Program-made: the position numbers and the translations under genes
Part shown: positions 16,313-21,974 of the stretch, one piece after another
Numbering within the stretch: position 1 is the first letter of the stretch
Layout of the letters: each line of letters begins with the position of its first letter
Notes under the pieces: model-generated
Told to the model about the DNA's origin: nothing
Database searches by the model: none
The model's input: the letters and a program-made list of their open reading frames with translations, nothing else
Source: Eledone cirrhosa
Lineage: Eukaryota
Assembly (NCBI GenBank): GCA_964016885.1
Contig: OZ024743.1
Location: forward strand, 59,334,001-59,398,000
DNA: 64,000 nucleotides
Direction of reading: 5' to 3'

Positions 16313-16781
16313 ATATATATATATATATATATATGTATATATATGTAAATATATAAATATATATATATATATAAATGGAATAGAATGAATATATATGGTT
16401 CCTATATATTACTGGTTCCTATATATATATATATATATATATATGTAAATATATAAATATATATATATATATGAATGGAATAGAATGAAACGAAATTTCA
16501 TTTCTCACTCTTAAACGGCACTTACTTAAATGTAAGTATGTATGTATACGTACATATATATATGTATACAGACGTACAGCAACATGTATATGTATATATA
16601 GTATATATATATATATATATATATATATATATACAGGCACACATATATATATGTACTTATCAGTTTACCGAACTTTATTATAATGTTCGCTTTGTTCGTT
16701 TGTAAACAAACGGACAACCTGATTTACGCCGTACAGTGTTCAGGCAACCACGTCACCTTTTTGTTCAACACTGACACAGGA

Positions 16782-16824
16782 ACGATGTACTAGTTTCATG
16801 CTTGTTAGCTATCGTCAGCACCGT
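16782..16824 (-). ncRNA. Retrozyme HHR copy 1
   Basis: acggtg CTGACGA tagctaacaagcat GAAAC ta GTA catcgt. Confidence 0.8.
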
Positions 16825-17329
16825 ATACCTTTCTGCCAGATGGTTGAACGTCCGAAAGTATATACTTTCCTTATGAATATAAACGGCTGAGCAGCCTAAT
16901 TTTCATATCGAGTGAGTTCAGTCGGCCAGGCGCACCGAAAACGATAAATGGAATAGAATAAAACGAAATTTCATTTATCACACTTAGTACGGCACTTACT
17001 TAAATGTAAGTATGTATGTATACGTACATACATATATGTATACAGACGTACAGTGGCATGCATATATATATATATATATATATATATATATATATATATA
17101 TATATGTATATATATATATATATATATATATATATATATATATATATATATATATATATATATATATATATTTATACATACAGGCACACACATATATATG
17201 CACGTATCAGTTTACCGAACATTTATTATAATGTTCGCTTTGTTCGTTTGTAAACAAACGGACAGCCTGATTTACGCCGTACAGTGTTCAAGCAACCACG
17301 TCACCTTTTTGTTTAACACTGACACAAGA

Positions 17330-17372
17330 ACGATGTACTAGTTTCAAGCTTGTTAGCTATCGTCAGCACCGT
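17330..17372 (-). ncRNA. Retrozyme HHR copy 2
   Basis: acggtg CTGACGA t-agc-taacaa-gct-t GAAAC ta GTA catcgt. Confidence 0.85.
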
Positions 17373-17910
17373 ATACCTTTCTGCCAGATGGTTGAACGTC
17401 CGAAAGTATATACTTTCCTTATGAAAATTAACGGCTGAGCAGCCTAATTTGCATATCGAGTGAGTTCAGTCGGCCAGGCGCACCGACAACGATAAATGGA
17501 ATAGAATGAAACGAAATTTCATTTCTCACATTAAGTACGGCACATACTTAAATGTAAGTATGTATGTATACGTACATGCATATATGTATACAGACGTACA
17601 GTAGCATGCATATATATATATATATATATATATATATATATATATATATATATATATATATATATATATAAAATATATATATATATATATATATATATAA
17701 AATATATATATATATATATATATATAAAATATATATATATATATATATATATTTATACATACAGGCACACACATATATATGCACGTATCAGTTTACCGAA
17801 CATTTATTATAATGTTCGCTTTGTTCGATTGTAAACAAACGGACAGCCTAGTTTACGCCGTACAGTGTTCAGGCAACCACGTCACCTTTTTGTTCAACAC
17901 TGACACAGGA

Positions 17911-17953
17911 ACGATGTACTAGTTTCATGCTTGTTAGCTATCGTCAGCACCGT
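17911..17953 (-). ncRNA. Retrozyme HHR copy 3
   Basis: Same motif as copy 1. Confidence 0.8.
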
Positions 17954-18362
17954 ACACCTTTCTGCCAGATGGTTGAACGTCCGAAAGTATATACTTTCCT
18001 TATGAACATAAACGGCTGCGCAGCCTAATTTTCATATCGAGTGAGTTCAGTCGGCCAGGCGCACCGATAACGATGAATGGAATAGAATGAAACGAAATTT
18101 CATTTATCACACTTAGTACGGCACTTACTTAAATGTAAGTATGTATGTATACGTACATACATATATGTATACAGACGTACAGTAGCATGCATATATATAT
18201 ATATTTATACATACAGGCACACATATATATATGCACGTATCAGTTTACCGAACATTTATTATAATGTTCGCTTTGTTCGTTTGTAAACAAACGGACAGCC
18301 TGATTTACGCCGTACAGTGTTCAGGCAACCACGTCACCTTTTTGTTCAACACTGACACAGGA

Positions 18363-18405
18363 ACGATGTACTAGTTTCAAGCTTGTTAGCTATCGTCATC
18401 ACCGT
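18363..18405 (-). ncRNA. Retrozyme HHR copy 4 (C3 mutated)
   Basis: Core reads ATGACGA; the rest is intact. Confidence 0.6.
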
Positions 18406-18666
18406 ATAACTTTCTGCCAGATGGATGAACGTCCGAAAGTATATACTTTCCTTATGAAAATTAACGGCGGAGCAGCCTAATTTGCATAACGAGTGAGTTC
18501 AGTCGGCCAGGCGCACCCAAAACGATAAATAGAATAGAATGAAACGAAATTTCATTTCTCACTCTAAGTACGGCACTTACTTAAATGTAAGTATGTATGT
18601 ATACGTACATACATTTATGTATAGAGACGTACAGTAGCATGCGTATATATATATATATACATGTAT

Positions 18667-18709
18667 ACGGTGCTGACGATAGCTAACAAGCTTGAAACTA
18701 GTACATCGT
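18667..18709 (+). ncRNA. Retrozyme HHR copy 5
   Basis: acggtg CTGACGA tagctaacaagctt GAAAC ta GTA catcgt. Confidence 0.85.
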
Positions 18710-18885
18710 TCCTGTGTCAGTGTTGAACAAAAGGGTGACGTGGTTGACTGAACACTGTACAGCGTAAATCAGGCTGTCCGTTTGTTTACAAACGAACATA
18801 GCGAACATTATAATAAATGTTCGGTAAACTGATACGTGCATATATATATGTGTGCCTGTATGTATATATATATATGTATATATAT

Positions 18886-18928
18886 ACGGTGCTGACGATA
18901 GCTGACAAGCTTGAAACTAGTACATCGT
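18886..18928 (+). ncRNA. Retrozyme HHR copy 6
   Basis: Intact core and stems; one change in loop II. Confidence 0.85.
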
Positions 18929-19335
18929 TCTCGTGTCAGCGTTGAACAAAAGGGTGACGTGGTTGCCTGAACACTGTACGGCGTAAATCAGGCTGTCCGT
19001 TCGTTTACAAACGTACAAAGCGAACATTATAATAAATGTTCGGTAAACTGATACGTACATATATATATGTGTGCCTGTATGCATATATATATATATATGC
19101 ATGCTACTGTACGTCTGTATACATATATGTATGTACGTATACATACATACTTACATTTAAGTAAGTGCCGTTCTAAGAGTAAGAAATGAAATTTCGTATC
19201 ATTCTATTCCATTTATCGTTTTCGGTGCACCTGGCCGACTGAACTCACTCGATATGCAAATTAGGCTGCTCAGCCTTTAATTTTCATACGGAAAGTATAC
19301 ACTTTCGGACGTTCAACCATCTGGCAGAAAGGTAT

Positions 19336-19378
19336 ACTGTGCTGACGATAGCTAACAAGCTTGAAACTAGTACATCGT
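19336..19378 (+). ncRNA. Retrozyme HHR copy 7
   Basis: Intact core; one stem I mismatch. Confidence 0.8.
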
Positions 19379-19830
19379 TCCTGTGTCAGTGTTGAACAGA
19401 AAGGTGACGTGGCTGACTGAACACTGTACGGCGTAAATCAGGCTGTCCGTTTGTTTACAAACGAACAAAGCGAACTTATAATAAATGTTCGGTAAACTGA
19501 TACGTGCATATATATATGTGTACCTGTATGCATATGTGTATATATATATATATATATATATATATATATATATATATATATATATATATATATGCATGCT
19601 ACTGTACGTATGTATACATATATGTATGTACGTATACATACATACTTACATTTAAGTAAGTGCCGTACTAAGAGTGAGAAATGAAATTTCGTTTCATTCC
19701 ATTCCTTTTATCGTTTTCGGTGCGCCTGGCATACTGAACTCACTCGATATGCAAATTAGGCTGCTCAGCCGTTAATTTTCATGAGGAAAGTATATACTTT
19801 CGGACGTGCAATCATCTAGCAGAAAGGTAT

Positions 19831-19873
19831 ACGGTGCTTACGATAGCTAACAAGCTTGAAACTAGTACATCGT
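19831..19873 (+). ncRNA. Retrozyme HHR copy 8 (G5 mutated)
   Basis: Core reads CTTACGA. Confidence 0.6.
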
Positions 19874-20762
19874 TCCTGTGTCAGTGTTGAACAAAAAGGT
19901 GACGTGGTTGCCTGAACACTGTACGGCGTAAATCAGTCTGTCCATTTGTTTACAAACGTACAAAGCGAACATTATAATAAATGTTCGGTAGACTGATACG
20001 TGCTTATATATATGTATGCCTGTATGTATGTATATATATATATATATATATATATATATATATATATATATATATATATATATATATATATATATATATA
20101 TGCATGCTACTGTACGACTGTATACATATATGTATGTACGTATACATGCATACTTACATTTAAGTAAGTGCCGTACTAAGAGTGAGAAATGAAATTTAGT
20201 TTCATTCTATTCCATTTATATATATATATATATATATATATATATATATATATATATATATATATATACACACACACACACACACAAAAGAGTACTTCAT
20301 ATTTACAGGAAAGCAAATAGATGTATATAAATGATTTTCAGAAAGTAAAATATATGGATAAGTTTGTGTTCGTCTAATTAGTTAAGATTACAAGACAGGT
20401 TGATTTCAAAGAGGGAAAATATGATTAATACAGCTTTCTACAAACGGGAATTGAATGTGTGTGTGTGTATGTATACACAGAAATATATATATATATATAT
20501 ATAAACGGAAAAATGAAACGAAATTTCATTTCTCCCTCTTAGTACGGCTGTTACTGAAATATAAGTATGTATACGTACATACATATATGTATACAGAGGT
20601 ACACTAGTATGTATATATACATACATGCACACATATATATGTACGTATGGATTCACCGAACATTTATGATAAAGCTCGGTGTGTTTGTAAACAAACATCC
20701 CGAATTAAGCAGTACAGTGTCTAGCAACCATCGTTGCTCATTTGTTCAACACTGACAAAGGA

Positions 20763-20805
20763 ACGCTGTACTAGTTTCAAGCTTATTAGTTATCGTCAGC
20801 AACGT
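20763..20805 (-). ncRNA. Retrozyme subfamily B HHR
   Basis: acgttg CTGACGA taactaataagctt GAAAC ta GTA cagcgt; stem I pairing is kept through a double change relative to subfamily A. Confidence 0.8.
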
Positions 20806-21003
20806 ATACCTTCCTGCCACATGATTGAACGTCTGAAAGTATATATTTTCCTTATGCATATTAACGGCTGAGCTGTCTAATTTGCATATCGAGTGAGTTA
20901 ATCGGCCGCGGTATCGAAAACGATAAACGGAAAAAATGAAACGAAATTTCATTTCTCACTCTTAGTAAGGCTGTTACTTAAACATAAGTATGTATACGTA
21001 CAT

Positions 21004-21438
21004 GGTGGCTGCCAACTCGTTTTCGAGTACGGCCACTACTTTATATCCATGTAGGAGAACCCCTACCGATACGCTGAACGAGTGTGACTTTTGAGTCCAG
21101 CCAGCGACTTGAAAACTCTGGTACAAAGACTACACTTGTGACAATTATTGACACATAGTGCTGGGCCCATGGTACCATGTGACGACAAGTGCAGAGAGAT
21201 CTCCAGATATAAAGCAATGCCTGTGCCATGAAGCTTTTATAGTGAGCAAAGGCACTGCACAAAGCCAGTCCCACTCTCTTAACCAAGATGATATTTACCA
21301 AAAAGAAGAACAAGTCAACATCATTGGATACCATCAGGGTTGCAGGTGTTATATCAGAGTTTTCCTTCTCCTAGAATTCTGCCTTGACAAAGGCTAAGGG
21401 GTCATCTCTCCCGGTGATTTTGGATGGCCATTGACTCT
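21004..21438 (-). mobile_element. Non-autonomous RTE-like derivative
   Basis: Target duplication tatacgtacat; encodes CSLCTRVFKSLAGLKSH (RTE-type terminal zinc finger); similar to 34400-34740. Confidence 0.7.
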
Positions 21439-21974
21439 TATACGTACATACATATATGTATACAGACGTACAGTAGTATGTATATATATATACATACATG
21501 CACACATATATATATATGTACGTATGGATTCACCGAACATTTATTATAATGCTCGGTATGATTGTAAACAAACATCCTGAATTAAGCCGTACAGTGTCTA
21601 GCAGTTCCTTTGTCAGTGTTGAACATATGAGCAACGATGGTTGCTAGACACTGTACGGCTTAATTCGGGATGTTTGTTTACAAACACACCGAGCATTATA
21701 ATAAATGCTCGGTGAAGCCATTCGTACATATATGTGTGCATGCATGTATATATATATATATATATACATACTAACTTACGTCTGTATACATATATGTGTG
21801 TACGTATACATACTTATATATATATGTGTGTGTGTGTGTGTGTGTGTGTGTGTGTGTGTGTGTGTGTGTGTGTGTGTGTGTGTGTGTGTGTGTGTGTGTG
21901 CATGTGTGTGTGTGGGTGTGTGTGTGTGTGTGTGTATGTTATTATATATATATATATAGTAAAATAATTGTTTA

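Follow-up and report, generated by a model that had tools for sequence, protein, structure and literature searches.

Two insertions of a hammerhead-bearing non-LTR retrozyme in Eledone cirrhosa, with insertion ends resembling those of Penelope-like elements

We analysed a 64,000-nt stretch of Eledone cirrhosa DNA (the window: assembly GCA_964016885.1, contig OZ024743.1, positions 59,334,001 to 59,398,000 of the forward strand), in which an earlier note had described tandem non-coding units with minimal hammerhead ribozymes at 16370-21815 and proposed a new family of non-long terminal repeat (non-LTR) retrozymes. The core pattern CTGANGA...GAAACTAGTA was matched against this locus and against 100 shuffles, which gave no match. 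The locus carries type I hammerheads at nine places, on the minus strand in five cases and on the plus strand in four. Their core is exact in seven and differs by a single core change in two, in line with the count in the note. A strict descriptor of stems I, II and III is passed by three of the nine, the rest having stem mismatches, and the same descriptor found nothing in 20 shuffled windows. The motifs are as follows.

16788-16818, minus strand: hammerhead core with a stem II mismatch, predicted cut after 16788 (core match)
17336-17366, minus strand: hammerhead core of consensus structure (core match and strict descriptor)
17917-17947, minus strand: hammerhead core with a stem II mismatch (core match)
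18369-18399, minus strand: hammerhead with C3 changed, predicted inactive (one core change)
18673-18703, plus strand: hammerhead core of consensus structure, predicted cut after A18703 (core match and strict descriptor)
18892-18922, plus strand: hammerhead core with a loop II variant (core match and strict descriptor)
19342-19372, plus strand: hammerhead core with a stem I mismatch (core match)
19837-19867, plus strand: hammerhead with G5 changed, predicted inactive (one core change)
20769-20799, minus strand: hammerhead of subfamily B with a U.G variant in stem I (core match)

The helices measure 6 bp (I), 4 bp resting on a U.U pair (II), and 2 bp (III). Helix III bears the palindrome ACTAGT, noticed earlier; the cut position proposed for the plus-strand copy at 18673-18703 also stands, its H17 being A18703. 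Two such palindromes paired together reach a computed -6.8 kcal/mol, and this pairing is what the dimeric hammerhead form described in PMC4209133 requires (here and below, papers are cited for their accessible text). According to the same source, the "min-HHR" hammerheads found in Penelope-like elements (PLEs) show a helix II of 7-8 bp, a helix I of 4-5 bp and no helix III. By its predicted helices, the present motif is instead a "canonical" metazoan type I hammerhead in the terms of that paper. The U.U pair at the base of helix II and the 2-bp helix III are shared with the axolotl motif HHR_Amex2. An Rfam search gave nothing at the gathering score, and no hammerhead was among the best 150 of 223 matches at E<=10. 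Further hammerhead motifs belong to other repeat families of the window (23400-23530 and 48938 on the minus strand, 9654 on the plus strand), and hammerhead-bearing repeat families are numerous in the genome sample by the strict descriptor.

The anatomy of the locus, derived by mapping unit segments along it, is that of two separate insertions (16471-20219 and 20501-21816) rather than the single tandem array suggested at first:

16127-16312: short two-armed copy of a Hydra-type PLE in the same TA tract, a neighbour from a candidate helper family
16312-16490: (TA)n target with a local duplication of about 100 nt that carries the last 17 nt of the element
16471-18655, minus strand: left arm of insertion 1, four hammerhead units, outer end at start site 1 joined to (TA)n (segment mapping)
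18661-20219, plus strand: right arm of insertion 1, four hammerheads, outer end at start site 1 joined to (TA)n (segment mapping)
20152-20221, plus strand: "tail" of 55-60 nt, bounded by start site 2 (a CTTACA/TTT hairpin loop) and by start site 1 (boundary between CCATTT and AT)
20501-21603, minus strand: site-1 arm of insertion 2, one hammerhead at 20769-20799 (segment mapping)
21003-21438: unrelated dispersed repeat of 436 nt inside the low-complexity part of the subfamily B unit, flanked by a direct repeat of about 10 nt
21604-21816, plus strand: inverted arm of insertion 2, which reaches (TA)n with its end at site 2 and so gives the usual site 1/site 2 architecture

In insertion 1, the two arms lie head to head, with their 5' ends joined near 18655-18661 and their 3' ends pointing outward into (TA)n. 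The motifs are spaced by 548, 581, 452, 219, 450, and 495 nt, and the unit itself is about 445-455 nt with a (TA)n tract of variable length. The earlier estimate of 0.5-0.6 kb for the units thus reflects expansion of this tract, while their description as non-coding holds. The first unit of the right arm, shortened to 219 nt, likely arose by duplication between two TA tracts. In the left arm, alternate units share variants and have about half as many private changes as right-arm units, so a two-unit block was likely duplicated locally after insertion, and the copy number at the locus is in part DNA-level history. A two-unit periodicity was also seen in two other arrays (L176 and the very young L175), through local duplication or a dimeric template. 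Insertion 2 belongs to subfamily B and is 78-87% like insertion 1; its two arms also meet head to head. The window holds old copies, in partial decay and remodelled by local duplications that came later. The dispersed repeat at 21003-21438 has one fixed end in TA/TACA repeats and has landed repeatedly in the low-complexity part of the unit (L121, L210, L076, L138, L170).

Dispersal, which the earlier note had made a test of its proposal, is extensive: candidates number 3,216 for the A-type unit and 1,687 for that of subfamily B across the genome, which also has 24,877 exact matches to a degenerate core (reversed control, 0) and 1,216 occurrences of the exact 3' junction, CCATTT followed by (AT)4. 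Among these relatives are two young sister subfamilies, of about 422 nt (1,878 matches) and about 466-500 nt (8,100 matches); over all subfamilies, the unit spans 420-500 nt. The GC content is 0.29-0.39. The compensated change in stem I that had been pointed out for subfamily B is present, and it is a subfamily-wide trait: ACGGTG/CATCGT, ACGATG/CATCGT, and ACGTTG/CAGCGT occur in 160, 38, and 68 copies (overlapping loci kept in the count), so that position 4 of stem I is G.U, A-U, or U.G depending on the subfamily. Among the sequencing runs listed as containing the element, none is RNA; three runs of unspecified kind are contigs of one sample, in which only many variant copies are visible. The longest ATG frame of one unit read as a circle has 47 codons; a remnant open reading frame (ORF) was considered and rejected on this length, and one frame is rich in stops. 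The element has no LTR build (primer-binding site and polypurine tract were not searched for).

Non-LTR retrozymes are described as having units of 150-450 bp (up to 972 bp reported), a GC content under 45-50%, and target-site duplications of more than 4 bp when present, and the unit length and composition found here agree with this. Like the metazoan members from coral, mussel, axolotl, and newt (satellite 2) (PMC7229834, 10.64898/2026.07.22.740005), the element consists of non-coding, low-GC tandem units with one type I hammerhead each, in thousands of copies. It is a real and abundant non-LTR retrozyme lineage. The family is new within the accessible literature (subscription papers, supplements, and Dfam/Repbase lay outside the comparison); the kind is known, and neither a new kind of element nor an unusually long unit finds support, reported families spanning 51-972 bp (10.64898/2026.07.22.740005). 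What remains of the proposed self-processing RNA mobile element is a dispersed, RNA-mediated, non-coding, hammerhead-bearing retrozyme whose self-cleavage is predicted from its sequence. One locus (L204, G000:C1:53354500-53364499) is on its way from insertion to satellite, with at least 20 diverged units that run in one direction and form higher-order patterns. A very young tandem family of 310 nt (L068, L130, L175) has a similar hammerhead core with the U.U pair and ends about 33 nt apart, and nests within the TA tract of the retrozyme lineage. Homology of the unit to this family was rejected (score 46 against a shuffled maximum of 45, not significant).

To define the ends of insertions, we surveyed 98 of the first 100 listed CCATTT/(AT)4 places, all on contig C1; the two left out were the partner end of L105 and a place already in hand. 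An inverted arm is present at 62 of the 98 junction loci, and 49 of the 61 visible outer ends of these arms fall at unit position 250-275 (site 2), with one at site 1. The distance from site 1 upstream to site 2 is 55-60 nt, and both sites are 236-296 nt beyond the cut site. The arms therefore terminate at two fixed internal sites and not at the ribozyme cut. In PLEs, a tail likewise lies between two internal starts of reverse transcription (PMC11167929), an inverted 5'-truncated copy is described for them (PMC8557442), and a (TA)n bias for Hydra, Neptune, and Naiad. As read from the insertions, the site 1/site 2 pair is the PLE tail signature, together with the inverted 5'-truncated arm, the partial tandems, and the (TA)n bias. 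The internal (TA)n tract, emphasised in the earlier note as built-in, was considered as the primer of the second arm and rejected: inverted arms end at the fixed site 2, downstream of the tract. A target-site duplication is visible in one case (9 bp, L171), and (TA)n targets would hide any others; this copy, at L171:4300-7400, lies within a Hydra-type ORF and was later included in an inverted duplication. Mobilisation by a PLE is well supported by these ends, and we regard it as very probable.

The resemblance extends to endonuclease-positive (EN+) PLEs in particular, namely Poseidon (PMC11167929) and the Hydra and Neptune clades (PMC8557442), which share the two internal starts with a tail, the inverted 5'-truncated arm, partial tandems, and the (TA)n target. 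In contrast to these, the retrozyme lacks an ORF for reverse transcriptase or GIY-YIG, is not homologous to the termini of local PLEs, and has a 5' end that is not fixed; its tail is 55-60 nt long instead of 30-40. Chlamys elements of the non-autonomous kind, MRC1 among them (PMC8557442), are also found in multicopy head-to-tail insertions made by a PLE, but they share 3' sequence with their autonomous partner and have no hammerhead, whereas the retrozyme has the hammerhead and no detected homology. The published accounts of metazoan retrozymes, in their accessible text, are silent on the pair of fixed start sites, the insertions with two arms, the choice of (TA)n as target, and the PLE hybrids seen in this lineage; expression and cleavage have been shown for the retrozymes in PMC7229834 and 10.64898/2026.07.22.740005, both being predictions here.

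A survey of 5' ends covered 349 arms, of which 242 are paired and 98 are free with enough flank. None of the 98 free ends runs into a colinear PLE ORF or shared upstream sequence. This count disfavours the alternative that the earlier note had itself named, the untranslated region of a coding PLE. More broadly, a coding PLE might have the unit as its terminal repeat and nothing more, or the unit could be a satellite that multiplied as DNA. Frog retrozymes are related to PLE terminal repeats (10.64898/2026.07.22.740005), and local duplication has shaped the present locus as well as one large diverged array; we nevertheless consider both versions highly improbable, because the free ends and the shortness of the ATG frames speak against a coding parent and because fixed ends, inversions, and RNA-structure covariation require an RNA step. 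At two of the 98 free ends (L179, L161), a Hydra-type site-2 arm is joined on head to head, with no intervening TA; among 30 Hydra-type site-2 arms examined, there was one hybrid, at the same locus as L179. L171 and L090 were rejected as hybrids and read as insertions inside PLE ORFs.

Which form of RNA was copied can be approached through the cut site. Of 145 arms, 91 reach it, and 88 of these run past while three stop there; of 381 cores, only 16 have their start in the interval -9..+10 around stem I. By contrast, the 5' end is sharp in the window's Hydra-type PLE family (a 12-nt stretch takes in 46 of 68 alignment starts, from 30 loci with some rows duplicated), whereas the retrozyme arms have no such end. 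Junctions across the cut site are exact in 393 of 396 cases (control, 229 of 230). Cut linear monomers, with the enzyme jumping end to end from one to the next, would account for the mosaics of variants that some young arrays show (L174, L191, L192) and for hybrids built from two RNAs, but the lack of a pile-up of 5' ends and of length errors at the cut makes such jumping improbable. Variation within arrays bears on the same question. In 39 young sister insertions (the old, diverged L204 left out; L202 in both family tables), 22 array-private variants are fixed in all units, 10 of them in both arms, while eight are partial and 73 single, "private" meaning private among the 39 sampled insertions. 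Variants fixed in all units and in both arms fit one circular monomer source per insertion. In older copies, 35 rare variants are shared within insertions against a null mean of 1.9 (maximum 10), a null computed without stratification by subfamily. From these patterns, a circular RNA appears to be the likeliest template, and we hold it with somewhat more belief than doubt.

The same element and a PLE helper could also have used an uncleaved linear multimer from a homogeneous source array, the hammerhead acting late or rarely. Variants shared partially among units and arms, and 5' ends slightly overrepresented immediately upstream of the hammerhead (10 stops at positions 1-20), would suit this, as would the dominance of uncleaved RNA as PLE substrate in vitro (PMC11167929). 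We think it rather unlikely, since linear copying cannot lengthen arrays and young arms have up to 14 near-identical units, a sharp 5' end like that of the Hydra-type family is not seen, and compensatory change keeps the hammerhead helices.

Several observations weigh against the combination of a PLE and a circular template. Both ends of insertion 1 are at site 1, the build found once among the 61 sampled ends. Five of the eight partial variants in young arrays extend across arms; such variants are not expected from one monomer circle and call for either gene conversion or multiple templates. The young arrays were picked for having several units, and one contig supplied most of the samples. 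An A>G editing signal in young arrays is weak (7/22 versus 8/73, p=0.04; versus T>C, p=0.34) and is absent from older copies (45 A>G, 48 T>C). Folded in isolation, the motifs do not outperform shuffles and favour a different pairing. Eight of nine frog retrozyme dimers did not cleave (10.64898/2026.07.22.740005), and together with the uncleaved PLE substrate this means that read-through may merely reflect absence of cleavage. The hybrids could be deletions between neighbouring insertions, and neither the terminus comparisons nor the survey of free 5' ends found sequence homology to any PLE terminus. On balance, we conclude that the locus probably represents two insertions of a non-coding, hammerhead-bearing non-LTR retrozyme, written by a PLE into (TA)n from two internal sites and likely copied off a circular monomer RNA.

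An RNA fold over 13 units has eight pairs changed on both sides, including two long-range helices. This number was reached in one of 500 shuffles; relatives may beat shuffles without any structure, a caveat that slid controls (0-2) address. An additional helix prolongs stem I and, in the model, would keep the ends of a cut monomer together. Folding z-scores of tract-free monomers run from -2.4 (window copy) to -6.3. The units also contain a conserved octamer:

19749-19756, plus strand: octamer ATGCAAAT, about 120 nt ahead of the next cut site and followed by a TATA-like palindrome (putative function)
19254-19261, plus strand: further octamer copy
17447, minus strand: further octamer copy
18480, minus strand: further octamer copy
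20880, minus strand: further octamer copy

Most copies retain ATGCAAAT: it was counted 336 times, its most frequent true variant 30 times. Because newt satellite 2 uses a small nuclear RNA (snRNA)-type promoter (PMC2220036), the octamer and TATA-like palindrome are, by analogy, a candidate snRNA-type internal promoter, which we offer only as a lead. A sigma-70 scan was set aside as irrelevant to an animal.

These elements suggest a possible life cycle. Arrays would be transcribed, with the octamer and TATA-like elements as candidate promoter parts, and paired hammerheads would cut by way of the palindromic stem III. The resulting monomer of about 450 nt, its ends held by stem I and the flanking helix, might be closed by a host ligase. 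A PLE protein would then nick (TA)n on both strands and prime at sites 1 and 2 through 1-2 nt of AU homology, circling the template a variable number of times before the two cDNA ends are joined. A bolder version, which we regard as doubtful though worth stating, is that a Hydra-clade enzyme loads two RNAs, one per strand of the (TA)n cut, and performs rolling-circle target-primed reverse transcription on a ribozyme-closed, self-promoted circle whose covarying fold mimics the PLE binding site without homology; the retrozyme would then be a viroid-like genomic parasite with an identified helper. Mobilisation of retrozymes by PLEs from circles was proposed in PMC7229834, and co-occurrence lends it support (10.64898/2026.07.22.740005). 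We found no insertion-level evidence for such spread in the accessible text of these two papers (subscription papers and supplements lay outside the search). The class of element is already known and the window copy is old, but the lineage offers exact start sites, an internal control in PLE arms with a fixed 5' stop, sister subfamilies of very young age, and two enzymes as candidate helpers, which together make the circle-copying step testable in the published in vitro PLE assay.

Both candidate helpers lie in the window, where all PLEs end in (TA)n. A Neptune-type PLE at 55432-58776 (minus strand) has a frame of 1,114 codons with CX2-5CxxC, and Hydra-type PLEs at 10525-14591 and 6063-7948 have the motifs CxCX5C, CxxC, and CxH; these clade assignments rest on motifs. 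Pfam returned no family for the PLE proteins of the window, and in the ESM Atlas the Hydra-type protein adjoins HTH_animal/GIY-YIG clusters. The Neptune-type ends are two sites 58 nt apart, about 316 nt from a hammerhead-like core, near the retrozyme geometry, and the Hydra-type ends are 79 nt apart. The hybrids favour a Hydra-type helper and the end spacing favours a Neptune-type one, neither being proof. From the sequences, the Hydra-type family of the window may be the helper, at slightly less than an even chance, and the Neptune-type family is a distinctly less likely candidate. Homology to the Neptune-type terminus was rejected (score 114 against a shuffled mean of 106), and a search for sequence beyond Hydra-type site 1 gave end variants only.

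The Neptune-type region (54851-62757) has a tandem/inverted build and a terminal repeat with a non-canonical hammerhead-like core. The Hydra-type PLE of 10525-14591 and 16127-16312 has two arms and about 7,000 exact site-2 ends in the genome, mostly from palindromic minis of about 190 nt whose arms share a single, sharply defined 5' stop (TTTAGTC, start-site-like). A second Hydra-type family (5700-7948 and 54620-54745) has its own TA-joined ends, with copies of 91-94% amino acid identity elsewhere. At 355-1929, the window also contains a broken non-LTR reverse transcriptase (Pfam RVT_1, E 1e-16).

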